A model generated the notes under the pieces. It was not told the DNA's origin, did no database searches, and saw nothing but the letters and a program-made list of their open reading frames with translations. 25,403 nucleotides of DNA. Source: Bacteroidota bacterium (GTDB lineage Bacteria; Bacillota; UBA4882; UBA8346). Both the position numbers and the translations under genes were made by a program. The stretch is from contig JBLNDC010000349.1 of assembly GCA_050261255.1 (NCBI GenBank), positions 1-25,403 on the forward strand, read 5' to 3'. Numbering within the stretch: the first letter of the stretch is position 1; each line of letters begins with the position of its first letter. This document shows, piece by piece, positions 6,660 to 25,277 of this stretch.

Positions 6660-6747
6660 GCGCCATCCTCCTTTCGGAACCATTTTATGTTGAATATCGC
6701 TGAATGTAACATGCGGATTGCACTATCGGCTATTGAAACTTTAAATG

Positions 6748-6768
6748 AAAAAAGCCCGAAACCCGGGC
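6748..6768 (-). terminator. Intrinsic terminator after the response regulator
   Basis: Minus strand reads GCCCGGGTTTCGGGCTTTTTT, just past the stop at 6777. Confidence 0.75.
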
Positions 6769-6776
6769 ATATCACA

Positions 6777-8396
6777 CTACTTTCGTAAATCAGTAGGCGT
6801 TACATTAAAATATTGACGGAAAACGCGGCCGAAATAGGCCGGGTCGGTATAACCAACCGCCATCGCAACCTCATAAACTTTTTGATTGCCTTCCTCCAAT
6901 AAACGCCGGGCAACTTCCATTTTCCGCCTGGTAACATATTCGGAGAAACTCTCCCCGGTTTGTTCCCGGAAGAGGCGGCTCAGATATGAAGGGCTCATGT
7001 AAACCCAATTTGCCGCCTTGGATAGGGTAATCGACTCAGCCAGATTTTGTTCGATATATTCTTTGACCTGAAGGATACAAGTCCGCTGAGAATTGTTATA
7101 TAACTTTTGAATGGCATGGCCCAGCCGGCCAAACTGGGTTTCCCACCACCGGGTCACAGCCTCGGCGCTTCCGCTCGGGCCGCCTTGCATCAGTAAAGCA
7201 TAATCTTCCGCCTCCATTACATCCCTAACTGTCAAACCGGCTCTTTGGGAGAGCCGGACCAAGGTCCCCGTTAACATCCAACCGGTTTCCCGTTGTTGAT
7301 CCGAAGTTTGGGAGGGGTCGTGTTTTGAAAGGGCTGATCCTAATAGATTTTCAAGGGTTGCCTTGATTAACCCGGCGGAGTTACCCCTTTCCAAGCTGGC
7401 CTTTAACTTCTCCTCATCAATCGGTAAAAATACCGGAAGGGGTTTTTCACCGGAGAAACAATTGGAATGAGCGACGATGGTTTCCACCCCGAACTGAGAA
7501 TGGTATTTCAGGGCTTGTTTTGCCTGCTCAAAGGAATCCCTAACTTGAGTTAGATTTGGCGCAATTCCTCCGATACCGATCACCAAAGCGCATGAAAGGT
7601 GTAGCCGGGCCTGGTCCAATATGGAACGGCCCATCCGGTTGGCCGACTCTATTAATTCCTTATTTGCGCAATCAACCGAGCCAAATAACACTGCACCAAC
7701 CCCGCCCCGCTCCAACCGGGCGGTAAATCCCCGATCTCCTATATCAGTTTGCGCGATCCGGTTCATCAGAAACCAGATTAGTTGCCGCTCCCGCTCATCA
7801 TAATTCAGGTAAAACCCGGTATTATCTTCAATTTCCAAAATCAAAGCAATGCAGGGCTGCTCCGGTTGGAACGGCAGTTTTAAAAAGCAAAGACGTTCCG
7901 GCAGGTCCTTTTCCTCAATCTCCCCGTATAACAAATCCCGGAGAAAATGTTCCCGTAAGATGGGGATGCTATTTTCCAACTGAGATTGGAATAATTTCCT
8001 AGTTGCTTCATCATTTCTTTTGTTAAGGAGCAGGTCGCGCTCTTTGAGTACCGCCTGTAAAATTTCCTCCGGGGGGGTGGGTTTGAGAATGTATCCCGTA
8101 ACTCCTAATTCAAGACATTTTTTCGCGTAGGCGAACTCATCATAACCGCTGATCACCAAAACTCTAGTATGTGGGTTCAGGTTCAAAGCGGAACGGGCCA
8201 ATTCGATCCCGTCCATGCCGGGCATCCTGATATCGGTGAGGATGATTTCGGGTCTTTCATCTTGAACCATCCGCCAAGCCTCGCTCCCGTCAACGGCCGG
8301 ACCAACGAGGCAAATCTCATGTTGTTCCCATGGGATCTCCTGCGCCAGCCACTCGCGGGAACCGGCTTCATCGTCAGCTATTAGAAGTTTAAACAT
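6777..8396 (-). CDS. YesN-type response regulator (REC + AraC HTH)
   Basis: REC motifs IADDE, ILTDIRMPGMDG, ISGYDEF and ILKP. C-terminal MSPSYLSRLFRE...GYTDPAYFGRVFRQYFNVTP. ATG 8396 has SD AGGAGG. Confidence 0.93.
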   Translation of the reverse strand: MFKLLIADDEAGSREWLAQEIPWEQHEICLVGPAVDGSEAWRMVQDERPEIILTDIRMPGMDGIELARSALNLNPHTRVLVISGYDEFAYAKKCLELGVTGYILKPTPPEEILQAVLKERDLLLNKRNDEATRKLFQSQLENSIPILREHFLRDLLYGEIEEKDLPERLCFLKLPFQPEQPCIALILEIEDNTGFYLNYDERERQLIWFLMNRIAQTDIGDRGFTARLERGGVGAVLFGSVDCANKELIESANRMGRSILDQARLHLSCALVIGIGGIAPNLTQVRDSFEQAKQALKYHSQFGVETIVAHSNCFSGEKPLPVFLPIDEEKLKASLERGNSAGLIKATLENLLGSALSKHDPSQTSDQQRETGWMLTGTLVRLSQRAGLTVRDVMEAEDYALLMQGGPSGSAEAVTRWWETQFGRLGHAIQKLYNNSQRTCILQVKEYIEQNLAESITLSKAANWVYMSPSYLSRLFREQTGESFSEYVTRRKMEVARRLLEEGNQKVYEVAMAVGYTDPAYFGRVFRQYFNVTPTDLRK

Positions 8397-8425
8397 CTTA
8401 ACCACCTCCTTGATAATCCCCTAAT

Positions 8426-8544
8426 TTAAGGAATAGCCTAATTGTTGACTTAAGCTTTGGCTCACAATATGTGATAAATACATCTGGGCTTATCATTATA
8501 TAATAGTGGCCAAAGGGTTTATTAAGGTAATTTTGCAATTTCCT
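8426..8544. repeat. ~119-bp self-complementary element, copy 1 (kinase/regulator gap)
   Basis: Direct repeat of 10393-10511 (20 differences in about 120 columns by hand alignment). Nested stems CTTTGGC/GCCAAAG and TGATAA/TTATCA. Confidence 0.85.
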
Positions 8545-10366
8545 AATTAACAGGATTGGCGGGCCAACGAATATCAACTATCAGTCCTCCGCCCGGGTTG
8601 GGTGAGAGCGAGACTCCCCATTTTTCACCATAAGCCAGGATCAACCTCCGGTGCGCATTAGCTAAACCATGGGAACTGGGAACCGTCGGATCGGCTAAAG
8701 CTTCCTTCACCGTTCGGAGTTGCTCTTCACTTAGACCGACGCCATTATCGACCACCTTAAAATGAATGGCATCGCCTTCATGCATCCCGGTAATTTCAAG
8801 CATTCCACTACCAGGTTTGGGCTCAAGGCCATGAACGAATGCGTTCTCCACCACCGGTTGGAGTAATAGTTTGGGTATTTGATATTTCAGGATCGCGGGC
8901 GCAACCTGGATTTCCACTGTAATCCGGTCGCCATGGCGCAATCTTTGCAATTCCAGATAGTGATTTAACTGTTCCAGGGCTTCCGAGATAGTGACGATGG
9001 ACGGTCCCCGGCCCAGGCTTAAACGAAACAGCTTTGACAAATTAAGGATGGCCCGGGAGCCTTCTTTGCCGTCCCCGCTTAAGACTAACCGATAGATACA
9101 ATCAAGAGTATTATAAAGAAAATGCGGGTTAATCTGCGCTTGTAAAAATTCCAACTCCGATTGGCGACGGGCCAGCCTTTCAACATAAGCCACCTGAATC
9201 TGTTGTTCCAGTTGTTCGGCGGTAGCGTTAAATTGCTGGAATAGTTCTCCGAATTCATCCTGGCGATTCTCGGAGATTCTGGTATTCAACTTACCGGCGC
9301 CGAGTTGATCCATGGCTTGGCCCAGCTGATGCACGGGATGGACTACATCGTGCAATAGAAACCAAGTTAATAGTAGCGCGGCCGCGATTGCAACCAGTAA
9401 ACTCAACCAAATAACATAAGAGGCCTCCTGATTTACCGGTCCATAAACCTGATCCAGGGGTTTCTCCTTGATATAAATAAACCCCATCGCTCCCCGAAGA
9501 TACATACCTAACACTTTAATCCCCTTGTCATTGGTATAAATTAAAGAACCGTACGGAGTATCGGGGCCTTCGGCTATCGCTTTGGCCAAGAGAGGTTTTT
9601 TTTGGGAATTATCGGAGAAGAGCTTATACTTCTCGGGGCTATGCCCGCCGGAGGTGGGAAGCGCCAACAACAGGCCGTTGGGGTCATAAAGTTCACCGTA
9701 TAATCCGTCAATGGGAAAAGTAGAACCGGTGGGAGTTTCGGATAAATCAGCGGAGCAATCCATTCCAATGATTACGGTTTCGCTGGTTTCGTTCGAAACC
9801 CAATAAATCGGCATCGTGGCCGGTCCGGGAGTCAACCGGACGTCTCCGATAAAACTGCGGGTAATCAAGATATTATTATTGGCAAAGGATGTTCCCAGCG
9901 GTTCGGTGGGCTCGATCCCTTGTAAAACCTGCCGCCACCAGGGGCGCTGCTTCAAATCGGCCACCGTCCAGTTTTGACCGGAACAGATGAATTGGCCGGT
10001 TTTGGGATAGATTAAATAGGCGGCCTGAATATACGGCAGGCCGTTAATTTGAGGCAGGTGGAGGATGGCCAGGTAGTTGGCGATCATTCGGCGAATCGCC
10101 GCATTGTCTTTATTGCGCAAGATAAAGGTCTGGGTAGCCAAATTACTGGTGATTTCAGCCCTACGCGCCAACTCGCCTAACACTTTTCCTTCGGATAAAT
10201 GCAATGAACTTAACATGCTATCGCGGGTGGCATCGGTAATCCGGTTTTTCAACCGGTTAGCCAATAATAGCGCGGTCAATGAGGCATACAAAAAGACCAC
10301 GAGGAACACGACTAGTAATATTTTAATTTGCAGGCTGGCTGGTTGCAGCTTTAAAATGCGGTTCAT
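8543..10366 (-). CDS. YesM-type sensor histidine kinase (2 TM, HAMP, His_kinase, HATPase_c)
   Basis: H-box LQAQINPHFLYNTLD, LLQPVVENAFVHG, DNGVG and HGLANAHRRL. TM segments near the N-terminus and before the HAMP domain. Confidence 0.93.
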   Translation of the reverse strand: MNRILKLQPASLQIKILLVVFLVVFLYASLTALLLANRLKNRITDATRDSMLSSLHLSEGKVLGELARRAEITSNLATQTFILRNKDNAAIRRMIANYLAILHLPQINGLPYIQAAYLIYPKTGQFICSGQNWTVADLKQRPWWRQVLQGIEPTEPLGTSFANNNILITRSFIGDVRLTPGPATMPIYWVSNETSETVIIGMDCSADLSETPTGSTFPIDGLYGELYDPNGLLLALPTSGGHSPEKYKLFSDNSQKKPLLAKAIAEGPDTPYGSLIYTNDKGIKVLGMYLRGAMGFIYIKEKPLDQVYGPVNQEASYVIWLSLLVAIAAALLLTWFLLHDVVHPVHQLGQAMDQLGAGKLNTRISENRQDEFGELFQQFNATAEQLEQQIQVAYVERLARRQSELEFLQAQINPHFLYNTLDCIYRLVLSGDGKEGSRAILNLSKLFRLSLGRGPSIVTISEALEQLNHYLELQRLRHGDRITVEIQVAPAILKYQIPKLLLQPVVENAFVHGLEPKPGSGMLEITGMHEGDAIHFKVVDNGVGLSEEQLRTVKEALADPTVPSSHGLANAHRRLILAYGEKWGVSLSPNPGGGLIVDIRWPANPVN

Positions 10367-10392
10367 TCCATTTTTCCTTAACTGTTTTTATA

Positions 10393-10511
10393 TTAAGGAA
10401 TTGCATAATTCATGATTTAAGCTTTGGCTCACAATATATTGATAGATACATCCGAGCTAGTCACTATATATTGTGGACAAAGGGTTTATTAAGGCAATTA
10501 TGTAATTCCCT
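10393..10511. repeat. ~119-bp self-complementary element, copy 2 (permease/kinase gap)
   Basis: Ends AAGGAATTGCATAATT / AATTATGTAATTCCCT are inverted repeats (14/16). Inner stem CACAATATAT/ATATATTGTG. Confidence 0.85.
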
Positions 10512-10573
10512 CATATAATTATGTTACAACATCTGACAATAAGTTCCTGCTATTTAACAAATAACTTTATTGC

Positions 10574-11437
10574 TTATTCCTTCAGGCCGGTGGTGGCTAA
10601 ACTCTGCATGAAGTAACGCTGGGCGATGAAGAACATTATCAGTAGAGGCAGCGTAAATAATACTCCCACCGTCATCTGGTAAGGGATCTGCGGCAGGGGG
10701 AGCGTAAATGAGACTCCCGGAATCTTCACATTGGAGATCATCTGCACCGCCAAGGTTTGGTTTTCATTAGCCAGGAAGATCAAAGGCTTAATATAATCCG
10801 AATAGAGCCATTGCAGAGAAAAAATACAAGTTGTCGTAATCGCCGGTCCTGCCAGCGGGAAGAAGATCTGCCAAAATGTTCTGAGCCGCCCGCAACCGTC
10901 AATCAGTGCGGCATCCTCCAATTCCTTCGGCAGGCTGGCGAAGAACTGCCGGTAGTAAAAGATAAAAATCGCCCATCCCGGAGCGGCATCCAGCCACCAG
11001 GGGAGAAAGCAGAAAGGATACGATAAAGTTAACAAACCCAGCTTGGCGAAGACGATATATTGGGGGATTAAAATTACTAGTTGCGGTAACATCATGGTTG
11101 AGAGCAACACCCCAAACAGAAAATTCTTTCCCGGAGCCTTGTAACGGGCAAAACCAAAACCCGCCAAGGCGCTGGATATGGTGACGATTACGGTAGTCGA
11201 AAGGCAGAGCGTAACCGAGTTGCGCATCGCCAGCCAAAAGTCGGTAACCTCGGTCCCCATTAACACCTGCTTGAAATGAATCCATTGGGGAGCCGGCGGG
11301 AAGATGGAGATGGGATAGGTAGCCAGTTCTTCGGGGCGTTTTAAAGCGGTGACCACCATCCAAAAGAGGGGAAATAAAAATATTAAACTCATCACAGTTA
11401 AAGTAATGATTAACGATACTTTTCTGGTATTATTCAT
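10574..11437 (-). CDS. Carbohydrate ABC transporter permease (MalG-type)
   Basis: FLFPLFWMVVTALK and the EAA loop LPKELEDAALIDGCG. Six or so TM segments. ATG overlaps the upstream stop. Confidence 0.93.
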   Translation of the reverse strand: MNNTRKVSLIITLTVMSLIFLFPLFWMVVTALKRPEELATYPISIFPPAPQWIHFKQVLMGTEVTDFWLAMRNSVTLCLSTTVIVTISSALAGFGFARYKAPGKNFLFGVLLSTMMLPQLVILIPQYIVFAKLGLLTLSYPFCFLPWWLDAAPGWAIFIFYYRQFFASLPKELEDAALIDGCGRLRTFWQIFFPLAGPAITTTCIFSLQWLYSDYIKPLIFLANENQTLAVQMISNVKIPGVSFTLPLPQIPYQMTVGVLFTLPLLIMFFIAQRYFMQSLATTGLKE

Positions 11438-12420
11438 TGCTTACCGGACCTCCCTTCCTGTTCTACCGCATAATGGACCCATGATGTGCTGGTTTTACGG
11501 ACAATCAACGCTATAGCCAAGATTATGACAAACAGGATCCACAACAGGGCGGTCCCATAGCCAAATCGCTGAAACGAGAGTATTTGTTGCAAAGCATAAC
11601 CGGGAAACACGAACATGGAATACCAAGGATTCCAGAAACTATTCGGATCATGGGCTTGAGCCATGACTGAGGCCGGGAGAAACATTTGTAAGGCATTGAT
11701 AATAGCCAGCATAATTTGGAAATAAGTGATTGGAGTAAGTAAAGGCCAGGTAATATGGAGAAAGATTTGCCCTTTGTTTGCTCCGTCAATCTCGGCGGCT
11801 TCCAATAGTTCCTCGGGAATGTTTTGCAGACCGGCTAAAAAGATGATCATCATCGTGCCGCAGCCCCAGACCGCAATCGCCACCAAACAATATAAACCGT
11901 AATTGTTAATCCAGTTTATCACCGTCCCTTTGCGGAACAGACTGATGAAGAGGTTGAGAAATCCGAAATTACCGTCTAAGATCGACTTAAAAACAAGAGC
12001 CGTGGCGCCGATCGGGATCATGGTCGGCAAATAAAAAGCCGTCCGGAAGGCTCCGCGGCCGGGGATTTTCTTATTGAGCAATATTGCTAAACCTAAGGCT
12101 ACCACTATGCTTAAAGGGATTGAGAGCAAGGTATAAATGAAAGTCTGACGCATGGTATACCAGGCGTCGGGACTTTGAAACGCCTCGCGATAGTTGGATA
12201 ACCCGATAAAAGCGGTACTGGAAAGGTCGAATCCGTTATAATTGGTAAAACTGGCAACCAAGGTGGCGACCATCGGGAAAACTTGCAAGAAAACGAAACC
12301 CAACAACCAGAGGCTGATAAAACCGTAAAAGGCGGTTGCTTCCCGTTGGATGAACCTTTGGAACCAGTGAGTTTGCTTTGGTCCAATTTCAATTGGCGCG
12401 GTTTTAATGGTTGTCATCAT
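11434..12420 (-). CDS. Carbohydrate ABC transporter permease (MalF-type)
   Basis: FLAGLQNIPEELLEAAEIDGA EAA loop and RTAFYLP. ATG 12420 has SD AAGGAG (the track start 12492 runs through a hairpin). Confidence 0.93.
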   Translation of the reverse strand: MMTTIKTAPIEIGPKQTHWFQRFIQREATAFYGFISLWLLGFVFLQVFPMVATLVASFTNYNGFDLSSTAFIGLSNYREAFQSPDAWYTMRQTFIYTLLSIPLSIVVALGLAILLNKKIPGRGAFRTAFYLPTMIPIGATALVFKSILDGNFGFLNLFISLFRKGTVINWINNYGLYCLVAIAVWGCGTMMIIFLAGLQNIPEELLEAAEIDGANKGQIFLHITWPLLTPITYFQIMLAIINALQMFLPASVMAQAHDPNSFWNPWYSMFVFPGYALQQILSFQRFGYGTALLWILFVIILAIALIVRKTSTSWVHYAVEQEGRSGKQ

Positions 12421-12449
12421 GATACTCCTTTCTCTTTTAATCCGGATGG

Positions 12450-12484
12450 AAAAGCGGGGCGGAGTGATCCGTCCCGCTTTTTTA
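12450..12484 (-). terminator. Stem-loop between SBP and permease (partial terminator / mRNA stabiliser)
   Basis: AAAGCGGGGCGGA / TCCGTCCCGCTTT inverted repeat with flanking A/T runs. Confidence 0.7.
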
Positions 12485-12495
12485 GTTAACATAAT

Positions 12496-13773
12496 TTATT
12501 TCATCGAAGCTTTATTGTCGGCAATGGCTTTGTTAACCTCTTTCTCCACATTGATTAAAAATTGGTCGAAAGAAATTTCGCCTTTCAGGGCCAGCTCAAA
12601 GTTTTTCCGCATCGAGTTCTCGTAGATCTCAGGCATGATATAGGGTGATGAATTTCCAATTTTAACGTACTTTAACTCAGTTTCTAAATTTAAGGCGCGT
12701 TCCTTGCCGTAAGCAGTCTCAGTGGAAACCAGGCCTAACAATGATTTCTGGCAGGGAACCCCCCAACCGCTGGTAGCCCGGTCTCGAGCGGGCGGGCCGC
12801 CGAAGAACCAATCGAAAACCCGGAAGGTGGCGTCGGGGTTCTTGGTTTTACTGGAGATGAAACCGCCGACGATGTTGAAGGACGGACTGATCCTAGGCTG
12901 TTTGGCATCCCAAACCGGAGCGGCGATCACCCCGACTTTACCTTTGGTTTTTTCACCCTCGGCCATGGCCCCATACCAGTAGCCATAGAAGATCATCCCG
13001 ATCCGGCCGCCGGAAAACATCGAACCTTCCCAGGCTTCGGAGGGAGAAATCGGGCTGGGAATGATTTTATCCTTGGCCAAGTCATAGAAGAATTTGCAGA
13101 TCTCCTTTACTTTGGGATTGCTGGTCAAGACAATCTTGGAACCGTCTTTGTTATACAGATTTTGACCGATACCGATCAATGTCTGCTCTAATTGGGCGTT
13201 AATATCCAAGGGCCAGAAAGCGAGGCCGCGTCGGATAATCCGGTCGCCTTCGGTTTTTTGCAACTTACGGGCGATCTCGGCCATCTTGGCATAAGTCATC
13301 GGCTGGGTGGGGCTTGGCACTGGAATTCCGGCTTCGGCAAAAGCCTCTTTGTTGCAATAACCAATCAGGGTCGGGCTCCAGTCTTTAACGAAGCCATAAA
13401 GTTTACCTTTGTATTTAAAATTTTCGACTACGGGTAAGAAGTCTTCTTTCTTTAAATACTTGGCTTTTTTCAGTAAAGTGTCAATCGGCATAGCCATTTT
13501 ATGCGCGGCCAGGTAGGGAATTCCGGCGCCATTGACCCGCATGATGTCCGGCGGGTTTCCGGCGGCGTTCATGGCCATGAAGCGGGCCATATCGGTTTCG
13601 AGCATGACCAGTTTGATGTCGGGGTTCTCAGCCATAAAAGCCTTGGCATACTCCACCGGAAATTCATTGGCATTGTACATTACGGTGACTGTGACTTGGC
13701 TGGCGGCAAAAATATTCATTCCCGCCAATCCGAAAACCGCAATCAGTAATAAGGCAATTAAAAACCTTTTCAA
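12496..13773 (-). CDS. Sugar ABC transporter solute-binding protein (family 1), Sec signal peptide without lipobox
   Basis: Motifs AGNPPDIM, YKGKLYGF, YCNKEAFAEAGI and FSGGRIGM. N-terminus MKRFLIALLLIAVFGLAGMNIFAA has no Cys. TTG start. Confidence 0.9.
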   Translation of the reverse strand: MKRFLIALLLIAVFGLAGMNIFAASQVTVTVMYNANEFPVEYAKAFMAENPDIKLVMLETDMARFMAMNAAGNPPDIMRVNGAGIPYLAAHKMAMPIDTLLKKAKYLKKEDFLPVVENFKYKGKLYGFVKDWSPTLIGYCNKEAFAEAGIPVPSPTQPMTYAKMAEIARKLQKTEGDRIIRRGLAFWPLDINAQLEQTLIGIGQNLYNKDGSKIVLTSNPKVKEICKFFYDLAKDKIIPSPISPSEAWEGSMFSGGRIGMIFYGYWYGAMAEGEKTKGKVGVIAAPVWDAKQPRISPSFNIVGGFISSKTKNPDATFRVFDWFFGGPPARDRATSGWGVPCQKSLLGLVSTETAYGKERALNLETELKYVKIGNSSPYIMPEIYENSMRKNFELALKGEISFDQFLINVEKEVNKAIADNKASMK

Positions 13774-15726: not shown

Positions 15727-15955
15727 TCCTTTCCGAAATACATCTGTCACACGTTGAAAGTCGCCCTTTTAAAGACTCAAACTCGGAAGCTAAAGACCCA
15801 AACTCCGCCCAACAGATTATCTGATTAGTTTATCCCTTCTCAAGTGCATTTCTTTCATATTCCATTGTCTGATTTCGAAGCAACCTCATATCATGAACCG
15901 AGACCGGCAATCTCTGAAAAACCGGTTTCAATTCAATGTAATGGAGGAAGCCCAG

Positions 15956-16657
15956 ATGTCTGTGAATGAACCCCAAATTCCCTGCCCGGGAGGAACTGTG
16001 TACACAATCAGGCCGGGAGATGCCTTTTATCTTTTGGCAAGGCGTTTTAATACAACTATCGCCGCTCTCCAAGCGGCTAATCCCGGTGTAGATCCGACCA
16101 ACTTACGTCTCGGCCAGCAGATTTGCATCCCGGTTCCGAGCGTGCCGGGCCCTTGCCCCGGAGGCTTTTTCTATACTGTCCTGGCTGGAGAAACTTTTTT
16201 CAGCCTAGCCCAGCGTTACGGTATTTCCGTAGCAGCGCTGCTGGCCGCCAATCCTGGTGTCGACCCCAACCGGTTACAGGTCGGACAACGGATCTGTATT
16301 CCGGCTCCGCCCCGGCCGGAACCTTGCCCGGGAACACTCTATACTATTCAACCGGGTGATACCTTCATCGGAATCGCGCGCCGTTTCGGCTATACACTTG
16401 ACGCTCTGTTGGCGATTAACCCAGGGGTTGACCCCGATCGCCTCCGGATTGGCCAACAAATTTGCCTGCCGCCTTCCCCCGGAGGAGGTCCCTTCCCTTG
16501 CTTTGGCGGGACCATTTACCGGGTTCAAGCGGGAGAAACCTTGTATTCAATCGCCCGGCGATTCGGCTTGACCCTACAGCAATTGTTAAACGCTAATCCC
16601 GATATAACCAACCCCAATGCGATCCAAATCGGCCAGCCGGTTTGCATCCCAAGATAA
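15956..16657 (+). CDS. Four-LysM-domain protein, SafA/ExsA-like spore-associated
   Basis: Four repeats of CP-x-G-x-x-Y-T/R-I/V-x-x-G-D/E-T...NP-x-x-D/N-P-x-x-L/I-x-x-GQ-x-I/V-C-I/L-P. ATG 15956 has SD GGAGG. No signal peptide. Confidence 0.9.
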   Translation: MSVNEPQIPCPGGTVYTIRPGDAFYLLARRFNTTIAALQAANPGVDPTNLRLGQQICIPVPSVPGPCPGGFFYTVLAGETFFSLAQRYGISVAALLAANPGVDPNRLQVGQRICIPAPPRPEPCPGTLYTIQPGDTFIGIARRFGYTLDALLAINPGVDPDRLRIGQQICLPPSPGGGPFPCFGGTIYRVQAGETLYSIARRFGLTLQQLLNANPDITNPNAIQIGQPVCIPR

Positions 16658-17126: not shown

Positions 17127-17204
17127 ATGGCTGATTCCAAAGCCGCTTTCTTTGGTTTTCCGTGGTTCTTATTTCTATTCTTGATACCTTTATTCGGCAT
17201 TTAA
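17127..17204 (+). CDS. 25-aa hydrophobic peptide MADSKAAFFGFPWFLFLFLIPLFGI (not in ORF track)
   Basis: SD AAAGGGGGTG ahead of the ATG. Followed by a strong terminator. Resembles the 20.5-21.4 kb peptides (MAD start, FFG, P-W-x-L-F-L). Confidence 0.7.
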   Translation: MADSKAAFFGFPWFLFLFLIPLFGI

Positions 17205-17212
17205 TCACTAAT

Positions 17213-17515: not shown

Positions 17516-18859
17516 ATGACGCCCAAAAACTTTTGGGTGCGGAAACTCTCGCTGCCACTTCGGACTGATGAAGTTTTCGGTAAGTCCGACTCTCCACGCC
17601 GGTTAATCGTGGAGGTCATGAACAACCGAAGCTTGGATCGGATAGCAGCGTTGATTGACTCCAACCAAGGGAAAATCCATAAAGAGATCCGGATGATCCC
17701 GTCGCTGGTTGCGGATTTGCCTTTCTCGTCCCTTGAAGAACTGGCGCGTTCCAGATATGTTTATAAAATTTGGCAGGACTCTCCGGTATATACTCAGCTA
17801 GACGTGGCGGTACCCTCCTCCGGCGGTCTAATCCCATACCAGGCGGGGCTGACCGGTAAAGGTGTCGTAGTTGCGGTTTTGGATACAGGAATCGATCCTC
17901 ACGAGGACTTGACTGAGCCGACCAATCGGATTTTGGCTTGGAAAGACTTAGTGAACCAAAAGAATTCCCCATATGACGATAACGGGCATGGCACTCATGT
18001 AGCCGGGATTATCGCCGGCAATGGCCGTTACTCCAATGGAAAATACCGGGGAATTGCCCCTGAGGCTATGCTGGTCGGGGTAAAAATTTTAGATGAAGAA
18101 GGCAGCGGCAGGTTATCTGATGTTATCTCCGGTATTGAATGGTGCATTAATAGTTTGTCGGCCTTGAATATCAGGGCGATCAATCTCTCGATCGGATCCG
18201 AAGTCCAGGAATCTTATCGGGCTGATCCGTTATGTCGGATAACTTCCGTAGCTTGGGAAAAAGGGATTACCGTATGCGCCGCCGCGGGAAACAGCGGACC
18301 AAGATTTGGAACTATCAACACGCCCGGCATCAATCCGGTAATTATAACCGTAGGTAATCTTGATGATCAAAACACCCTCACCAACATCGATGATATCCTC
18401 GCACCTAGTTCCAGCAGGGGGCCGACCCCGGACAGACTGATTAAGCCGGACTTAGTAGCGCCCGGCACTAATATTACTTCGCTAAAAGTTGGAGGTGGCT
18501 ATACCACTCTGAGCGGTACTTCAATGGCGACTCCATTGGTAAGCGGCGCGGTTGCCCTAATCCTCCAAAAGTGGTCTAACCTTAAACCAGATCAGCTCAA
18601 AACTCTTTTAATGCAGAGCGCCCGGAATGTTGGCGTCGGGCCTAATCTACAGGGAGCAGGAGCTTTAGATCTAGAGGCTATTTTTAAGCATGAAATTGAG
18701 TCACCAAAACCAAAAAAAAACGAACCCGAGCCAAGTCTCGGTGGAATCTTACTTAAAACCATTCTCAAAATGGTAGTCTCTAATCTTTCCTCCGGTCAAC
18801 AGTTTAAAGGGACTGATCTCCTAAAAATGGCCTTAAATTTCATGGGAAATTTAAAATGA
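17516..18859 (+). CDS. S8 subtilase (AprX-like), paralogue 1
   Basis: Triad VLDTG / NGHGTHVAG / SGTSMATP and oxyanion AAGNSG. I9-like propeptide, no signal peptide. Confidence 0.93.
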   Translation: MTPKNFWVRKLSLPLRTDEVFGKSDSPRRLIVEVMNNRSLDRIAALIDSNQGKIHKEIRMIPSLVADLPFSSLEELARSRYVYKIWQDSPVYTQLDVAVPSSGGLIPYQAGLTGKGVVVAVLDTGIDPHEDLTEPTNRILAWKDLVNQKNSPYDDNGHGTHVAGIIAGNGRYSNGKYRGIAPEAMLVGVKILDEEGSGRLSDVISGIEWCINSLSALNIRAINLSIGSEVQESYRADPLCRITSVAWEKGITVCAAAGNSGPRFGTINTPGINPVIITVGNLDDQNTLTNIDDILAPSSSRGPTPDRLIKPDLVAPGTNITSLKVGGGYTTLSGTSMATPLVSGAVALILQKWSNLKPDQLKTLLMQSARNVGVGPNLQGAGALDLEAIFKHEIESPKPKKNEPEPSLGGILLKTILKMVVSNLSSGQQFKGTDLLKMALNFMGNLK

Positions 18860-19113: not shown

Positions 19114-20376
19114 TTGCCTCAGGCCTTATTGCATAAACTCTGCCCGGAGTTGCGCAAAACGGAGTATAACGAGAACCCAGAACAACCTCGCCGCATAATT
19201 GTGGAAATGAATCAATCGGTTACCGGGCGTGTCACCGATTTTGTCAATCACTCTCAGGGCAAAGTCCACCGGAAAGTGAATGTTTTTCCAGGGTTGGTCG
19301 TGGAATTGCCCTTCTCCCATATTCAAGAGATGACTTGGTTCCCTTATATCAAAAAAATATGGCATGACACCCAAGTTCAAGCCTTGATGGATATCGCCGC
19401 CCCGACAGTGGGCGGATATACCGCTCAAGAATCCGGCTTTACAGGTAAAGATATGGTAGCGGCGGTGATCGATACCGGGATCTACCCCCATACCGACTTG
19501 ATCTACCCGGAAAACCGGATCATCGGTTGGTATGATTTGGTCAATGAAAGAGATAACCCCTATGACGACAATGGGCACGGTACTCACATCGCCGGGATTA
19601 TTGCCGGAAACGGTGCTATCTCTCGAGGCAGGTTTCGTGGGATGGCGCCCGAAGCGAAACTAGTAGGAGTCAAAGCCCTTGATCGCAATGGTTCGGGAAA
19701 TACGTCCGATGTGATCGCCGCTATTGAGTGGTGTATTAAAAACCGGGAGCAATATAAGATCAATGCGATTAACCTCTCTTTAGGTTCAATTGCTCAGGAC
19801 TCTTGCCGGAACGATCCCCTCTGCCGGGCGGCTACTGCTGCCTGGAAAAACGGGATTGTGGTTTGTGTCGCTGCCGGTAATGACGGACCGGAAGCAGGAA
19901 CAATCAATACTCCGGGAATCAATTCATTCGTAATTACAGTTGGCAATCTCGATGACAACGCCACCATCGAGTGGGACGACGATCAATTAAACCCATCCTC
20001 TAGTCGTGGCCCGACCATCGACAATATCAACAAACCTGATCTCTTAGCGCCGGGAACTACAATTAATTCATTGCGGGTTCCTCGCGGTTACCGCGCCTTC
20101 AGCGGTACCTCGATGGCTACCGGGGTAGTTACTGGCGCGGTCCTCCAAATACTCCAGAAAAACCCGGACTTAGCCCCGGATGAAGTCAAACGTCTCTTGG
20201 TAAACCATACCCGCTTTCTGGATCTTGACACTAACCAACAGGGAGCAGGAGTAATTAATCTCAACGGCATTTTTGAAGAAGCCAAACAAAACCGATTAGA
20301 AAACAATATATTCACCCGGGCATTACCGCTGACTATGTTCGCTTTAGCTCCTTTTGCCTTTAGTATCCTATTGTAA
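19114..20376 (+). CDS. S8 subtilase (AprX-like), paralogue 2
   Basis: Triad VIDTG / NGHGTHIAG / SGTSMAT and AAGNDG. TTG start with SD GGAGGTG. Hydrophobic C-terminal tail. Confidence 0.93.
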   Translation: MPQALLHKLCPELRKTEYNENPEQPRRIIVEMNQSVTGRVTDFVNHSQGKVHRKVNVFPGLVVELPFSHIQEMTWFPYIKKIWHDTQVQALMDIAAPTVGGYTAQESGFTGKDMVAAVIDTGIYPHTDLIYPENRIIGWYDLVNERDNPYDDNGHGTHIAGIIAGNGAISRGRFRGMAPEAKLVGVKALDRNGSGNTSDVIAAIEWCIKNREQYKINAINLSLGSIAQDSCRNDPLCRAATAAWKNGIVVCVAAGNDGPEAGTINTPGINSFVITVGNLDDNATIEWDDDQLNPSSSRGPTIDNINKPDLLAPGTTINSLRVPRGYRAFSGTSMATGVVTGAVLQILQKNPDLAPDEVKRLLVNHTRFLDLDTNQQGAGVINLNGIFEEAKQNRLENNIFTRALPLTMFALAPFAFSILL

Positions 20377-20396: not shown

Positions 20397-20422
20397 AAAC
20401 CCGGCTTTTAGTCCGGGTTTTT
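20397..20422 (+). terminator. Intrinsic terminator after S8 paralogue 2
   Basis: AAACCCGG ... CCGGGTTT followed by T run. Confidence 0.75.
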
Positions 20423-20535
20423 TCTGCTTAAGTAACGACTTTGATAAAAGGTTTATAGCCTAATACCATCAAAAGTTAAAACACATAAAATGTAACAGAA
20501 AGGACGGTTAAGTCCGCATAATAAAAGGAGTGAAA

Positions 20536-20652
20536 ATGATGGCTGATAATGTAAAATCATTATTTGACGGTATTTTTGGTTGTTGTAACCCATTTTGGCT
20601 TTTCTTAATTCTAATCTTGTTAACAGCCGGTTGTTGCGGCGGCTTCCGGTAA
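20536..20652 (+). CDS. 38-aa Cys-rich hydrophobic peptide 1, MMADNVKSLFDGIFGCCNPFWLFLILILLTAGCCGGFR
   Basis: SD AAAGGAGTG. Paralogous to the next two ORFs with many synonymous differences. The start could be 20539. Confidence 0.88.
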   Translation: MMADNVKSLFDGIFGCCNPFWLFLILILLTAGCCGGFR

Positions 20653-20750
20653 AATGTCACAGTAAAACGAAACCCATTCTCTTTTACTCTTAAATATAAA
20701 TCTGGGCAGAAACGACTAGCAATGTCATTAATTTTAAGGAGTGAAAACCA

Positions 20751-20861
20751 ATGGCCGACAATTGTTCCAGGGGCTTACTTGGCGGCATCTTCGGTTGTTG
20801 CAACCCGTTTTGGCTGTTTTTAATCTTAATATTACTAACAGCCGGTTGTTGCGGTCGGTAG
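20751..20861 (+). CDS. 36-aa Cys-rich hydrophobic peptide 2, MADNCSRGLLGGIFGCCNPFWLFLILILLTAGCCGR
   Basis: SD AAGGAGTG. Identical protein core with divergent codons. Confidence 0.88.
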   Translation: MADNCSRGLLGGIFGCCNPFWLFLILILLTAGCCGR

Positions 20862-20994
20862 TTCAACCTGCTGAAGGTGCTGAAGAAATGTTTCGGTAAA
20901 CATCAATTAGCATAATATCAACACTTGAGGAATCTCATATAATATAAAGGAGGACGAACGAAGTCCTTGACTATAGTCAAAGGAGTGATTAAGT

Positions 20995-21111
20995 ATGGCG
21001 GATAACCCAATCAAATCCATGTTTGACGGTTTCTTTGGCTGCTGCAATCCGTTTTGGTTATTCCTAATTCTGATACTCTTAGTAGCCGGTTGTTGCGGTG
21101 GCGGTTTCTAA
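20995..21111 (+). CDS. 38-aa Cys-rich hydrophobic peptide 3, MADNPIKSMFDGFFGCCNPFWLFLILILLVAGCCGGGF
   Basis: SD AAAGGAGTG. Same core. Followed by a terminator. Confidence 0.88.
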   Translation: MADNPIKSMFDGFFGCCNPFWLFLILILLVAGCCGGGF

Positions 21112-21137
21112 TAGATAATAAACCCCAAGTAAGTATC

Positions 21138-21160
21138 AGCCCGGTTAAACCGGGCTTTTT
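21138..21160 (+). terminator. Intrinsic terminator after peptide 3
   Basis: AGCCCGG-TTAAA-CCGGGCT followed by T run. Confidence 0.8.
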
Positions 21161-21276
21161 ATCTTATATCTTTTAGGCTTCTTCAAAGTTCTTTCGTCAC
21201 ATTCCGTTTAGCGTATCAAAATCATATTATAAAACCAAGAAAGAACCCTTATCCTGAACTGAAGGAGGTGTAAAGA

Positions 21277-21381
21277 ATGTCTGATGCCAAATTCGACGGA
21301 ATCTTCGGCAACAATTGTTTGTGGATCATCTTGTTGATACTTCTCTTCTGTTGCTTATGCGGTGGTGGCGGATTGTTCTAA
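21277..21381 (+). CDS. 34-aa Cys-rich hydrophobic peptide 4, MSDAKFDGIFGNNCLWIILLILLFCCLCGGGGLF
   Basis: SD AAGGAGGTG. Shares FDGIFG, W-I/L-x-L-x-I-L-L, CC and a Gly-rich end with peptides 1-3. Has its own terminator. Confidence 0.85.
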   Translation: MSDAKFDGIFGNNCLWIILLILLFCCLCGGGGLF

Positions 21382-21411
21382 GCGATAGGATGAAGTTATA
21401 AATAAGGACCC

Positions 21412-21435
21412 AGCCCGGATTACCGGGCTTTTTTT
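21412..21435 (+). terminator. Intrinsic terminator after peptide 4
   Basis: AGCCCGG-ATTA-CCGGGCT followed by T run; same stem as 21138-21160. Confidence 0.8.
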
Positions 21436-21663
21436 ATTGATTGAGGGCGCAAAGTAAAACGTGTTCTCCAAGTCCGCTGCGTTTTCGTCCTTGGATTAAC
21501 CAACAAGCTGCTTTTATCCTTCGATTCCCCAGAAAACCGGGGTGAAAGATAATAGTCAAATGGAACAAAGGATAAAAAAAGCGATACAAAATGCTTTTCT
21601 CAGCGAAACAGGGGGATTATACTCCATATAATGAACTGACCGGTAAATATGGAGGTGATTCCT

Positions 21664-23076
21664 TTGGCCCAAAATAGGATTTCGGGAAAACTCTCTCCCC
21701 TACTCCAGCAGGTCGAACATTCCAAAGATCAATTATGCAAAGTGATTGTTGAACTATCAAGCGGGCGGACGGACCAGATCGACGCTTTGGTCCGGGCCAA
21801 TAACGGAAAAATTCATCACAAAATTGGAATAGTGCCCTCTCTGGTAGTGGAACTTCCCTATGATTCAATCCCGGAACTTGCTAAATCCAGGCAAGTTAAG
21901 CGGATTTGGTATGACGCCCAGGTTAAACAATTACTAAATACCGTAGTCCCAACAGTCTGCGGATTTGGGGTAAAAAAAAGCAGTTTTACAGGGAAAAAGA
22001 TAACTATCGCCGTTCTTGATACCGGAGTCTATCCGCATCACGATTTGGTTTACCCTGTTAACAGGATAATCGCCTGGGCTGACTTTATTAACTTTCAAAA
22101 AGCCCCATACGATGATAATGGTCACGGGACTCATGTGGCTGGAATAATAGCCGGAAATGGCGCCAGCTCATTCGGGAAATATTGCGGAATTGCACCCGAG
22201 GCCAACTTGGCCATAGTCAAGGTCTTGGATAAAAACGGCAATGGCTCTTTATCGGCCATCATCGAAGGGATCGATTGGTGTATTAAAAATAAAGCCGAGT
22301 ATAATATTAAAATTATTAATCTATCTTTTGGCGCGGTTGCCCAGGATTCATATAGGACCGACTTATTATGCCGGGCCACATCTATAGCTTGGAAAAACGG
22401 AATCGTTGTCTGCACCGCCGCGGGTAATGACGGTCCTAGGGCCGGAACAATCAATACTCCGGGGATTAATCCAAAAGTTATTACCGTCGGCAACTTAGAC
22501 CATCGGAGAACGGTTATTTTTGATGATGATCGAGTTCATCCTACTTCCAGCCGGGGACCGACCCGGGACAAAATAAAAAAGCCTGATTTACTTGCGCCTG
22601 GTACTAATATTATTTCGTTAAGGCCGGGGGGTGGATATCGGTCTCTGACTGGAACTTCAATGGCCGCATCAATAGTTTCGGGAGCAATTGCTTTGATTTT
22701 GGAGAAAAATCCAAAACTCCGGCCGGATCAAGTCAAACGCATGCTGCTCAAAAATGCCCGGGAAATAGGGCTAGACCCATATGAGCAGGGAGCAGGAGTT
22801 ATTAATCTTCAAAAAATTTTCGCCGGTTCTGGTCGGGCGCCCCGAACTCAAATTCTAGGGGTCGAACCATTAACGGAAAAGGCCCAATTAAGGGCTTGCT
22901 ACATTGATAATTATCTTGAATACAATAATTTGCTCAACCCTTATTTATTATTCTTGATCTTAATTTTATTAATTTCAGCTTCCCCCGGTTATTATTACAG
23001 CGCGAATCCCTATTTTCTCTTTTTGATTTTGCTCCTCTTAATCCTTACTAATGAACCGAGGCTGTTATACAAGTAG
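21664..23076 (+). CDS. S8 subtilase (AprX-like), paralogue 3, with double hydrophobic C-terminal tail
   Basis: Triad VLDTG / NGHGTHVAG / TGTSMAAS. GGAGGTG at 21651 is the SD for TTG 21664 (the track start 21649 overlaps it). Tail NPYLLFLILILL ... NPYFLFLILLLLIL. Confidence 0.92.
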   Translation: MAQNRISGKLSPLLQQVEHSKDQLCKVIVELSSGRTDQIDALVRANNGKIHHKIGIVPSLVVELPYDSIPELAKSRQVKRIWYDAQVKQLLNTVVPTVCGFGVKKSSFTGKKITIAVLDTGVYPHHDLVYPVNRIIAWADFINFQKAPYDDNGHGTHVAGIIAGNGASSFGKYCGIAPEANLAIVKVLDKNGNGSLSAIIEGIDWCIKNKAEYNIKIINLSFGAVAQDSYRTDLLCRATSIAWKNGIVVCTAAGNDGPRAGTINTPGINPKVITVGNLDHRRTVIFDDDRVHPTSSRGPTRDKIKKPDLLAPGTNIISLRPGGGYRSLTGTSMAASIVSGAIALILEKNPKLRPDQVKRMLLKNAREIGLDPYEQGAGVINLQKIFAGSGRAPRTQILGVEPLTEKAQLRACYIDNYLEYNNLLNPYLLFLILILLISASPGYYYSANPYFLFLILLLLILTNEPRLLYK

Positions 23077-23200: not shown

Positions 23201-23329
23201 TTGGCGATCCGGGTAGATATCGAGCACGATATCCTATTAATCATTACCACTGTTTTATTTATTCTCTTTGCCACCGGCCTGGCGGTACCTTCGGAAATTC
23301 CGACCACGCCGATAATTTTACCACCATAA
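23201..23329 (+). CDS. 42-aa single-TM peptide MAIRVDIEHDILLIITTVLFILFATGLAVPSEIPTTPIILPP (not in ORF track)
   Basis: SD GGGAGGG ahead of TTG. One clear TM segment. The stop abuts the SD (AAGGAG) of the next gene. Confidence 0.7.
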   Translation: MAIRVDIEHDILLIITTVLFILFATGLAVPSEIPTTPIILPP

Positions 23330-23343
23330 AAGGAGAGATACCC

Positions 23344-23685
23344 GTGTTTTCTACGGAGGATTTGGAGAAGATCAAAGAACAAATCTACCAGTATAAAGTA
23401 GGAGCAACTAGAAACAATATCAGAAATGAAAAAGAAAAACCTGGAGATAATAAAAATAACACCAAGTGCGGACCTAGCCTAAATCCACCGGAGATTTTAG
23501 TCATCGCCGGGTTATTAAGCGGCGCCTTGGAAGTAAGCTCAGTCTCGTTAAGTAGAGATCAAATAGTCCAGGTGTCGCTTGAAGGTTCCCTCCGGCGCCA
23601 AACTCAGTTGGAGCAGGTTATGGAACAAGTCGGTAAATGCACCTTTGAAGAGGTAATGCGGGCAATGCTAAAGGGCATGAATTAA
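23344..23685 (+). CDS. Conserved hypothetical protein, probably sporulation-associated
   Basis: GTG with SD AAAGGAG. The C-terminal half PPEILVIAGLLSGALEV...LEGSLRRQTQLEQVM...FEEVMRAM resembles small clostridial hypothetical proteins (recall). The spore link is inferred from context. Confidence 0.75.
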   Translation: MFSTEDLEKIKEQIYQYKVGATRNNIRNEKEKPGDNKNNTKCGPSLNPPEILVIAGLLSGALEVSSVSLSRDQIVQVSLEGSLRRQTQLEQVMEQVGKCTFEEVMRAMLKGMN

Positions 23686-23764: not shown

Positions 23765-24223
23765 TTGGCGAAGAAGCAAAAACTAAACACAACCCAACAA
23801 AAATATCAAAAAATAATACAAGAGACTAATCCTAAACCAAATATTCGGCAAAACGCTTTGATGGCCTTTGTCAGCGGCGGCTTAGTATGCGTCTTAGGCC
23901 AATGTCTCATTGACTTTTATGCTTGGATTATGAAACTCCCACCGGAAAAAGCCAGCAATCCGGCAGTGGTTACCATGATCCTAATCGGAGCGCTTTTAAC
24001 CGGATTCGGCCTCTTTGATAAATTGGCCCATTATGCCGGCGCCGGTTTGGCAGTCCCGGTGACCGGATTTGCCAACTCGATTGTCTCCGCGGCTCTGGAA
24101 TTTAAACGGGAAGGATACATTATGGGGATCGGCAGTAAAATGTTCCTGCTGGCCGGTTCGGTGATTACCTATGGGGTGGTGACCGCGTTTTTTGTCGGGC
24201 TAATTAGGGCAATCTTTAAATAA
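23765..24223 (+). CDS. spoVAC: Stage V sporulation protein AC
   Basis: Motifs AFVSGGLVCVLGQ, FDKLAHYAGAGLAVPVTGFANSIVSAALEFKREG and GIGSKMFLLAGSVITYG. Confidence 0.95.
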   Translation: MAKKQKLNTTQQKYQKIIQETNPKPNIRQNALMAFVSGGLVCVLGQCLIDFYAWIMKLPPEKASNPAVVTMILIGALLTGFGLFDKLAHYAGAGLAVPVTGFANSIVSAALEFKREGYIMGIGSKMFLLAGSVITYGVVTAFFVGLIRAIFK

Positions 24224-24263
24224 ATCAATAAAATTATTAACCAGGAACTGCAAGGAGTAACAA

Positions 24264-25277
24264 TTGACCAAAAAACTTGGCAAACAATCTTTTTATTTCG
24301 AAACCCCCCCGGTAATTATCAGTACCGGAACCGTAGTCGGACCCTTTGAAGCAAATAGCCCTTTTAAGGATGATTTTGATTTTATCTATAACGATACCCT
24401 AGCCGGACAAGAGAGCTTTGAAAAAGCGGAACGGGCTCTGTTACTCAATGCCTGTTATACCGCTTTAAATAAAATAAATACTCCTCCGGAAAATATCGAA
24501 TACTTTTTCGCTGGGGATTTGTTAAACCAAATCATCTCAGCCGGTTTTACCGCTTTAAAATTGAAGATCCCGTTTTTTGGAATCTATGGGGCCTGTTCGA
24601 CTGCTGCCGAAGGGTTGATCCTTGCTTCGGTAATGATTGACGGCGGTTTTGGTAATCTAGCGATGGCTGCCACCTCCAGTCATAACAGCTCAGCCGAAAG
24701 GCAGTACCGTTATCCGACTGAATATGGCAATCAGCGGAAGCCTTTTTCCCAATGGACAGTAACCGGCGCCGGAGCTGCCGTAATCTCAGTTTCAGGTTCC
24801 GGGCCGGTGATCACTCACGCAACAGTCGGGAAGATCAACGATCTAGCTTGCAAGGATCCCTTAAATATGGGAGCAGCCATGGCCCCAGCAGCGGCTGATA
24901 CCATTATCCAACACTTCGCCGATACCGGCAGGAGTCCTAAGGATTATGACCTAATTCTTACCGGCGACTTAGGCAAGGTTGGATGGGATTTAGCTATCAA
25001 ATGGACAGCGGAAAGCGGCGGCTTCGACCTTTCCCGGAATTACCAAGATTGCGGAGTATTAATTTACGAGCAAGCTGACGAAAAGGTTCACGCCGGTGGT
25101 AGCGGTTGCGCTTGCTCGGCGGTTGTAACCTATGGAAATATTTATCGCCGTTTAAAGCAAGGCGAGTTGAAGAGGGTATTGTTGGTTGCAACAGGCGCGC
25201 TGCACAGCCCGACCTCATTCCAACAAGGTGAAAATATACCTTGTATCGCTCATGCAGTTTGTATTGAAGCGAGGTAG
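24264..25277 (+). CDS. spoVAD: Stage V sporulation protein AD
   Basis: Motifs GDLLNQ, GIYGACST, SAERQYRYPTEYG, WTVTGAGA, DYDLILTGDLG, GGSGCACS and TGALHSPTS. Confidence 0.96.
   Translation: MTKKLGKQSFYFETPPVIISTGTVVGPFEANSPFKDDFDFIYNDTLAGQESFEKAERALLLNACYTALNKINTPPENIEYFFAGDLLNQIISAGFTALKLKIPFFGIYGACSTAAEGLILASVMIDGGFGNLAMAATSSHNSSAERQYRYPTEYGNQRKPFSQWTVTGAGAAVISVSGSGPVITHATVGKINDLACKDPLNMGAAMAPAAADTIIQHFADTGRSPKDYDLILTGDLGKVGWDLAIKWTAESGGFDLSRNYQDCGVLIYEQADEKVHAGGSGCACSAVVTYGNIYRRLKQGELKRVLLVATGALHSPTSFQQGENIPCIAHAVCIEAR

Follow-up and report, generated by a model that had tools for sequence, protein, structure and literature searches.

The stretch of DNA explored here, called the window below, is contig JBLNDC010000349.1 of assembly GCA_050261255.1 at its full length of 25,403 nucleotides, and it belongs to a metagenome-assembled genome (MAG; 78% complete, 649 contigs) of the Bacillota lineage UBA4882; UBA8346. 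Between positions 20536 and 21381 it carries four very short open reading frames (ORFs) in tandem, flanked by three genes for S8 subtilases. The genes of this module are as follows (aa, amino acids; SD, Shine-Dalgarno site):

Peptide 1: 20539..20652, plus strand, 37 aa, type A (MADN..CCNPFWLFLILILL..CCGG..); SD GGAG at 20527-20530; family profile E ~1e-18 to 1e-21.
Peptide 2: 20751..20861, plus strand, 36 aa, type A; without a CATA-type promoter box of its own.
Peptide 3: 20995..21111, plus strand, 38 aa, type A.
Peptide 4: 21277..21381, plus strand, 34 aa, type B (M-S/A-D-A-K-F-D-G-I-F-G-N-N-C-L-W-I-I-L-L.., Cys/Gly tail); profile E 4.9e-10.
S8 subtilase 1: 17516..18859, plus strand, 447 aa; no signal peptide; amphipathic C-terminal tail; Pfam PF00082 E 3.7e-57.
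S8 subtilase 2: 19114..20376, plus strand, 420 aa; no signal peptide; hydrophobic C-terminal tail.
S8 subtilase 3: 21649..23076, plus strand, 475 aa; C-terminus bearing two peptide cores.

All four small ORFs lie on the plus strand behind a GGAG-type SD at 6-8 nt, as an initial annotation made from the letters alone had seen. Peptide 1 would be longer by one Met if translation began at a second in-frame ATG, at 20536; 20539 is preferred as the start because the family consensus begins M-A-D. The identical core followed by x-A-G-C-C-G that had been described in three copies is present in copies 1-3 (G-C-C-N-P-F-W-L-F-L-I-L-I-L-L-(T/V)-A-G-C-C-G), and in the family alignment conservation peaks in the hydrophobic core and both ends vary, which is where the initial annotation had placed variation and constancy. 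When the 24 shared core codons of these copies were compared pairwise by a Nei-Gojobori count, we found 13 synonymous and 0 non-synonymous differences between copies 1 and 2, 12 and 5 between copies 1 and 3, and 14 and 4 between copies 2 and 3. The proportion of synonymous differences (pS) is thus saturated at 0.74-0.86 and that of non-synonymous differences (pN) is 0-0.09. Such a pattern marks old duplicates kept by strong protein-level selection, and the suspicion of such selection, raised from the differing third codon positions, is borne out by this dN/dS-type check. Compared with related strains in public runs, the deletions within the peptide ORFs are of 3 nt (20762, 21361, 21363) and the indels between them of 1-2 nt. 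Furthermore, a profile built from other genomes ranks the peptide ORFs of the window as the top matches in their own genome. The four ORFs are genuine, conserved genes under purifying selection, far beyond chance.

Six-frame searches of related genomes recovered the same peptides in tandem arrays. A profile of 19 sequences (A1) has matches in 31 of the 58 species genomes of the window's class, and a profile of 55 sequences (A3) in 42 of them, with up to 9 copies per genome; the expansion by gene duplication that had been proposed is supported. By family of the class, the A3 profile finds a match in 26/30 genomes of f1, 13/20 of f2, 1/1 of f6 and 1/3 of f4. Outside the class, there are just three weak matches in 401 sampled genomes of the phylum. 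When 1.84 billion representative proteins were searched exhaustively with a profile, 8 matches came up at E <=0.001, none of them named; a word-indexed protein search gave one relative of 40 aa, and a search of the ESM Atlas returned unnamed clusters alone, all scoring <0.9. Gene callers usually skip these ORFs, and the difference between 8 relatives in the protein collection and 42/58 class genomes in six frames illustrates how systematically tiny hydrophobic proteins escape them. Pfam and NCBIfam models, scanned with the four peptides, do not cover the family, so that the clean match to a characterised family which the initial annotation had allowed for did not turn up; BPSS1780, DUF5840 and Pelovaterin were rejected as sub-threshold noise of these scans. 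The family is previously undescribed.

Its members are 31-47 aa long and consist of an acidic N-terminus (M-A-D-x-x-K-G/S-L-F-D-G), a Gly-rich linker, a hydrophobic core of about F-L-I-L-(I/V)-L-L-V-x-G and a short Gly-rich tail, usually with Cys; 50 of the 55 distinct members start with M-[A/S]-[D/E]. Several subtypes stand side by side within one locus. Peptide 4 represents a second subtype and a separate orthogroup (…F-G-N-N-C-L-W-I-I-L-L…, C-C-C-G-G-G tail), with an orthologue at the equivalent position in each sister species, and a 64-aa mini-protein from a metagenome (P0006) consists of two core units. On another contig of the window's genome there is a further member (sixth in our numbering; G000:C208:2940-3035, minus strand) of 30 aa, M-A-D-A-Q-F-D-G-I-F-G-G-W-W-W-I-F-L-I-F-I-F-F-C-F-C-N-R-R-F, equipped with an SD and a terminator of its own. 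The relative P0011, with a Y-P-Y-L-L-F-L-I-L-I-L-L core, has as its neighbour a thioredoxin-domain gene, not an S8 gene.

In the 55 distinct members the strictly defined hydrophobic core has a median of 12 residues and lies within an uncharged stretch of ~25 residues; a median of 8 residues follow it, and the N-terminus is acidic or polar and holds no signal. Having one hydrophobic segment at most ~30 residues from the C-terminus and no N-terminal signal, the peptides resemble tail-anchored proteins, with a very short end behind a segment at the extreme C-terminus. Tail-anchored proteins are a topological class and not a family, and the core of the peptides is short by comparison. Because there is no signal peptide, the peptides would enter the membrane from the cytoplasmic side and keep the N-terminus inside. 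The single hydrophobic helix of the initial annotation thus stands, and a membrane or coat location is plausible in a spore-former.

The cysteines tell a different story. Cys pairs on either side of the helix are found in copies 1-3 of the window, but not as a trait of the family: Cys occurs ahead of the core in 29/55 distinct members, past it in 44/55, on both sides in 27/55 and nowhere in 9/55, two peptides of Hydrogenispora ethanolica being among the Cys-free ones. The Cys pair ahead of the helix is restricted to the window's genus, and the sister species mostly have G-C instead of C-C at this place. Because 9/55 members, including some of H. ethanolica, lack Cys, cross-linking or acylation could at best be a refinement of single lineages. 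In the window's genus the paired cysteines may contribute cross-links, but cross-linking cannot be the core mechanism of the family, and the general picture of disulfide-linked or S-acylated peptides is not supported. We know of no bacterial precedent for the S-acylation of such peptides.

The strongest clue to the role of the peptides, which the initial annotation had left unweighed, is a conserved partnership with S8 subtilases that lack a signal. The C-terminus of subtilase 3 repeats the peptide core twice, once at 22936-22971 (NPYLLFLILILL; N-P-Y-L-L-F-L-I-L-I-L-L) and once at 23005-23040 (NPYFLFLILLLL; N-P-Y-F-L-F-L-I-L-L-L-L), and this double-core tail is also present in the sister species and in H. 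ethanolica. At 20 further loci, 6-7 kb on each side of the family matches were read, and three sister loci and the Hydrogenispora locus were read as well. In at least eight genera, g1, g3, g6, g9, g11, g12 and g21 among them, 2-4 S8 paralogues alternate with the genes of the peptide array. The Asp, His, oxyanion Asn and Ser motifs are intact in all three subtilases of the window. By hydropathy, none of the S8 subtilases has an N-terminal hydrophobic signal and most have hydrophobic or amphipathic tails; a hydrophobic tail is found in 6/10 full-length orthologue frames of subtilase 2 (for example …F-N-P-L-S-L-A-L-L-A-L-I-P-L-A-I-V). From the gene fusion and the synteny over many genera, we infer a functional link between peptides and subtilases, for which these two genomic observations are good evidence. 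A complex prediction for subtilase 3 with peptide 3, run without controls, gave no answer (score 0.00, mark 0.32) and weighs neither way. Literature searches on tiny peptides paired with subtilases in sporulation turned up nothing relevant. Tiny sporulation-type membrane peptides are a known kind; what is new is the family itself and its conserved subtilase partnership with a gene fusion.

Relatives of the three enzymes carry the source name 'serine protease AprX'. Like the AprX-type intracellular subtilases (PF00082, MEROPS S8A), they have an N-terminal propeptide, no signal peptide and the D-H-S motifs; unlike them, they come in sets of 2-4 paralogues per locus, their C-terminal tails being hydrophobic or amphipathic, and other genera add degenerate catalytic motifs and free propeptide-like proteins. 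To our knowledge, no peptide partners have been described for AprX. In the degenerate cases, a subtilase next to the peptides has altered Ser and oxyanion Asn motifs (for example S-G-A-S-I-A-T, S-G-N-T-I-A-A, A-V-E-N-Q; L056:7094-8452, L063:4331-5722, L075:1566-2942, L062:6041-7378, L061:1223-2920 and L058:4146-5609), which recalls the pseudoproteases among the Csp germination proteases of clostridia. The free proteins are of ~95 aa and match residues 3-93 of the subtilase propeptide (L063:3106-3399, minus strand; L075:3802-4095; L072:5742-6038; L056:8874-9188; L065:3656-3949, minus strand); there are none in the window. They may be trans-acting propeptide inhibitors or chaperones.

Most of the peptide genes also share a promoter-like motif. 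In ~38/57 family genes, from at least 7 genera, a conserved block stands 50-62 nt before the ATG, in which (a-a-C-A-t-T-T-g-C-C-t-a) is followed after ~22 nt by t-C-A-T-A-t-a-a-T-(a/g). In the window the corresponding elements and the terminators are:

CATA-type -10 box of peptide 1: 20484..20492, plus strand, CATAAAATG; the conserved upstream block ends near 20460.
Leader stem-loop of peptide 1: 20502..20515, plus strand, GGAC..GTCC, in the 5' leader.
CATA-type -10 box of peptide 3: 20936..20944, plus strand, CATATAATA; followed by a stem-loop at 20951-20967.
CATA-type -10 box of peptide 4: 21223..21231, plus strand, CATATTATA; matrix score 34.3.
Intrinsic terminator after subtilase 2: 20397-20420.
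Intrinsic terminator after peptide 3: 21138..21156, plus strand, 8 pairs and a T-run.
Intrinsic terminator after peptide 4: 21412..21429, plus strand.

Because peptide 2 has no box of its own and no terminator precedes it, it is probably co-transcribed with peptide 1. A promoter matrix trained on other genomes only, when run over the whole genome of the window, ranks the box of peptide 4 first, that of peptide 1 second and that of peptide 3 joint sixth. Genome-wide it gives 24 matches above 14 against 16 in the shuffled genome, so just the top few are meaningful, and no regulon is definable from it in a fragmented MAG. The best match outside the family (G000:C295, ~3101, minus strand) stands ahead of a 113-aa LysM protein with a tail rich in W, G, P and F, which is plausibly a coat protein and subject to the same control. 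A short hairpin directly follows the box in 28/38 leaders (z < -1.5; mean z over all 38, -2.3), with stems that vary among the copies (GGAC/GTCC, AGCCT/AGGCT, GACCT/AGGTT), and it looks like a 5' stabiliser of an abundant mRNA.

Two RNA libraries contain matching contigs. In a mixed-culture metatranscriptome, a 2092-nt contig (depth 67.5, ~91% identity) spans 20518-22614 and so takes in the whole set of peptide genes and the greater part of subtilase 3. In a soil metatranscriptome, a 154-nt contig is 100% identical to 21253-21406, the peptide 4 unit, and it begins just past the predicted transcript start and stops just before the terminator. These contigs lend weak support to transcription of the peptide genes; parts of the locus that they leave uncovered, including subtilase 2, were not used as evidence.

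As candidate mother-cell reference promoters for the lineage we read the regions upstream of spoIVA (L109-L120) and of dpaA (L121-L137), the latter gene being sigma-K dependent in Bacillus subtilis. The dpaA promoter reads CTTCACC-N16-GAATATACTA in 12/14 genomes read, and its -10, G-A-A-T-A-T-A-C-T-A, is close to the C-A-T-A-T-A-C-T-G of the peptides. The spoIVA upstream region has a conserved C-C-A-A-T-A-T-A-T-A-T-A-T-A-T-T-G-T-T, followed by A-A-G-G-G-G-G-G-A-T-G-A..A-A-T-T-C-C-C. The -10 of the peptides, of the form C-A-T-A-n-n-n-T-A/G, is of the kind that in B. subtilis is recognised by sigma-E and sigma-K, the factors of the mother cell (logos in PMC517825). Assignment of one sigma factor by way of the B. 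subtilis consensus, spoIVA and dpaA was tried and rejected: the -10 fits the mother-cell type, but the -35 and the spacing do not. Because of this misfit, we call the promoter only 'mother-cell type, probably late'.

The genomic context is that of an endospore former, an uncultured relation of the spore-forming Hydrogenispora. SpoIVA is present in 55/58 genomes of the class, so the class as a whole forms endospores, and in the window the module has sporulation genes as neighbours, namely spoVAC/spoVAD (23765-25277) and a SafA-like LysM gene (15893-16657), both adjacencies being confined to the window's genus. In the cultured H. ethanolica, a homologue of the neighbouring subtilase is 60% identical. 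That genome (strain LX-B, GCA_004340685.1; SLUN01000008.1:55179-70441, our locus L143, handle G016:C8) holds the whole module, with genes at 6297-12910: peptides of 36, 55, 39, 41 and 34 aa, several of them Cys-free, lie among three signal-less S8 subtilases, the third of which ends in two N-P-F..L-F-L-I-L-I-L-L units, and here the small genes are annotated.

Based on these results, we infer the membrane topology of the peptides, the timing of their expression, their physical association with the proteases and any role of their cysteines, and we propose, with a probability of roughly one half, that they are tail-anchored mother-cell membrane peptides working with the tail-bearing subtilases. 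Each peptide would be built of three parts, the conserved acidic N-terminus, the Gly-rich linker and one helix, (F/L)-L-I-L-(I/V)-L-L, with its Gly-rich tail. It would be made in quantity from a stabilised unit of its own (CATA-type -10, 5' hairpin, strong SD, terminator); expression would most likely fall within sporulation, in the mother cell and probably at a late stage. The peptides would probably act at the membrane or a hydrophobic inner layer round the forespore together with the AprX-like subtilases, which could reach the same surface through their own C-terminal tails and, in the case of subtilase 3, through the two fused peptide cores. The task of the peptides there could be to organise the proteases, to tether them or to modulate them; alternatively, the proteases could trim the peptides.

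Several observations weigh against this proposal. The strictly defined core (median 12) is short for a bilayer. The adjacency to spoVA is confined to the window's genus, and there is no S8 gene within 6 kb at the second loci of genomes G019 and G054 and at the loci outside family f1. As regards the promoter, the upstream block lies ~5 nt farther from the -10 than the -35 element of B. subtilis sigma-E and sigma-K promoters does, a -35 of the dpaA type (A-C at N17) is found in some copies only, peptide 1 included, and the spoIVA promoter region of the class is unlike those of the peptides. Finally, the RNA data are assembled contigs, which are blind to transcript ends, and an RNA library may hold DNA.

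The same proposal would place the peptides beside the short list of endospore morphogenetic peptides (SpoVM, CmpA, SscA/YjcZ) and, if true, extend this list to a deep, little-studied branch of the Bacillota. SpoVM and CmpA of B. subtilis, both <40 aa, come from the mother cell and organise envelope assembly at the forespore surface, as the peptides described here may do; CmpA is tied to proteolytic quality control. SpoVM differs in being an amphipathic surface helix and not a hydrophobic tail anchor, and both are single-copy, have no known subtilase partners and show no sequence likeness to the peptides. The family offers a clean, strongly selected case with a conserved partner, and so a concrete hypothesis of how such peptides work, which can be tested because the family occurs in the cultured H. 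ethanolica.

A bolder form of this proposal, which we consider doubtful, would be that the (N-P-aromatic)-x-L-F-L-I-L-x-L-L helix serves specifically as a tag for assembly, and that peptides and subtilases build a hetero-oligomeric proteolytic platform on the forespore-facing membrane. The tag would then be carried by the free peptides, the two-unit mini-proteins and the subtilase tail; active, degenerate and free-propeptide forms of the subtilases could all take part, and the peptides might set stoichiometry or activity, or serve as substrates. If true, this would be a peptide-organised protease machine for maturation of the spore envelope or for germination, with no described counterpart.

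The known system closest in architecture is YjcZ/SscA, among whose relatives the initial annotation had suggested looking. In B. subtilis, yjcZ belongs to the sigma-K regulon (PMC517825), and SscA is a 28-aa hydrophobic, SafA-dependent inner-coat peptide required for normal levels of CotB/G/H (PMC13417171). The likeness lies in size (~28-60 aa), in one Leu/Ile/Val helix that ends in Gly, in Gly-rich flanks with a tail that often holds Cys and aromatic residues, in the multi-copy genes and in the restriction to endospore-formers. An unlikely alternative to the subtilase partnership would be that the peptides are a very divergent YjcZ/SscA branch that acts alone in coat assembly, the protease neighbourhood being incidental co-regulation. 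The cores are indeed similar (L-F-I-L-L-I-I-V-G in YjcZ, L-I-L-V-L-L-V-x-G in the family), and since true YjcZ was not found in the class genomes sampled, its niche could be filled by the peptides: true YjcZ genes occur in 4/251 genomes of the phylum (34-49 bits; 1-12 copies, 6-12 in three of the four), in 0/8 sampled genomes of the window's class, and neither in the window's genome nor in four more of the class. However, the profiles do not support a kinship. TIGR01732 and PF09680 (curated cut-offs 21.35 and 21 bits) gave no match at E <=10 to the four peptides, the window locus, or Hydrogenispora and three relatives; hhalign of 55 family members against 22 true YjcZ sequences reached a probability of 9% over 9 columns; and a YjcZ hidden Markov model (HMM) scored the peptides at -1.5 to -5 bits, below the values of up to 7.4 bits that it gives to random hydrophobic frames from this genome. 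The acidic M-A-D-x-x-K-G-L-F-D-G N-terminus is absent from YjcZ, and the genomic linkage to subtilases over at least eight genera, with one core fusion, speaks against an incidental neighbourhood. The family therefore has the YjcZ design (a tiny protein, one hydrophobic helix, Gly/Cys-rich flanks), which is no proof of homology, and by no test is it a member, with the proviso that short hydrophobic sequences limit any inference of remote homology. Thus, of the initial reading, real and selected genes, their duplication, the one helix and a plausible membrane or coat site have held, and the Cys mechanism and the kinship with YjcZ/SscA have not.

A role outside sporulation also appears unlikely to us. 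AprX of B. subtilis is a stationary-phase protease, and the peptides could be small membrane proteins of vegetative or stationary cells, for example stress modulators or anchors of intracellular proteases. The AprX name of the subtilases, the -35 and spacing that leave the sigma factor unassigned, and the origin of the RNA contigs from bulk communities of unstated cell state are all compatible with this. On the other hand, the -10 is of the CATA type and not TATAAT, and sigma-70-like sites are no commoner in a scan of the locus than in shuffled sequence. The whole class sporulates, sporulation genes adjoin the array in the window's genus, and the best promoter match outside the family precedes a coat-like protein with LysM and a W/G/P-rich tail.

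We regard it as improbable that the peptides are precursors or substrates of the subtilases, from which removal of an N-terminal leader would free a hydrophobic Cys/Gly-rich signal, antimicrobial or coat product. The tight and repeated adjacency to S8 proteases and the M-[A/S]-[D/E] N-terminus of nearly all members would suit such a role, and the free propeptide-like proteins and degenerate S8 paralogues of other genera suggest regulated proteolysis. The idea also gains from the fact that subtilases remove leaders in the lanthipeptide and cyanobactin pathways. Against it, the loci have in common no gene for a modifying enzyme, a transporter or immunity; their conserved neighbours are S8 genes, small ORFs and a 113-aa protein alone, in contrast to the enzymes and exporters of ribosomally synthesised and post-translationally modified peptides (RiPPs). 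A radical-SAM pair near the locus in H. ethanolica sits with NirD/L-like regulators and recurs in 0/23 other loci, in scans that sought the neighbour proteins of the window and not radical-SAM genes. Moreover, conservation is highest in the hydrophobic core of the peptides, unlike in the variable cores of RiPPs, and the proteases lack an export signal. Type I toxin-like membrane peptides, each checked by an antisense RNA, would share the small hydrophobic multi-copy tandem peptides with own promoter, structured leader and terminator, but this is very improbable, given that the promoter scan of the locus found no minus-strand antisense promoter above chance, that the leader hairpin leaves the SD unsequestered, that the subtilase link and fusion have no parallel in toxin-antitoxin loci, and that the layout of a charged N-terminus and a C-terminal hydrophobic segment is opposite to that of most type I toxins.

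Three further small ORFs of the window deserve mention. The first is a possible degenerate fifth member of the family:

Possible peptide: 17128..17205, plus strand, 25 aa, Cys-free, MAD..FFG.PW.LFLFL; CATACATT lies 56 nt upstream; membership unproven.

Its sequence is M-A-D-S-K-A-A-F-F-G-F-P-W-F-L-F-L-F-L-I-P-L-F-G-I, with a leader hairpin and a downstream hairpin; it resembles a member pared down to the minimum, but the family profile missed it in the window's genome. After subtilase 3, a 42-aa ORF at 23201-23329 encodes one hydrophobic helix and has a TTG start and a GGAGGG site. The 113-aa protein at 23344-23685, which has no Pfam or NCBIfam match, recurs beside the subtilases in genera g1 and g6 and in Hydrogenispora.

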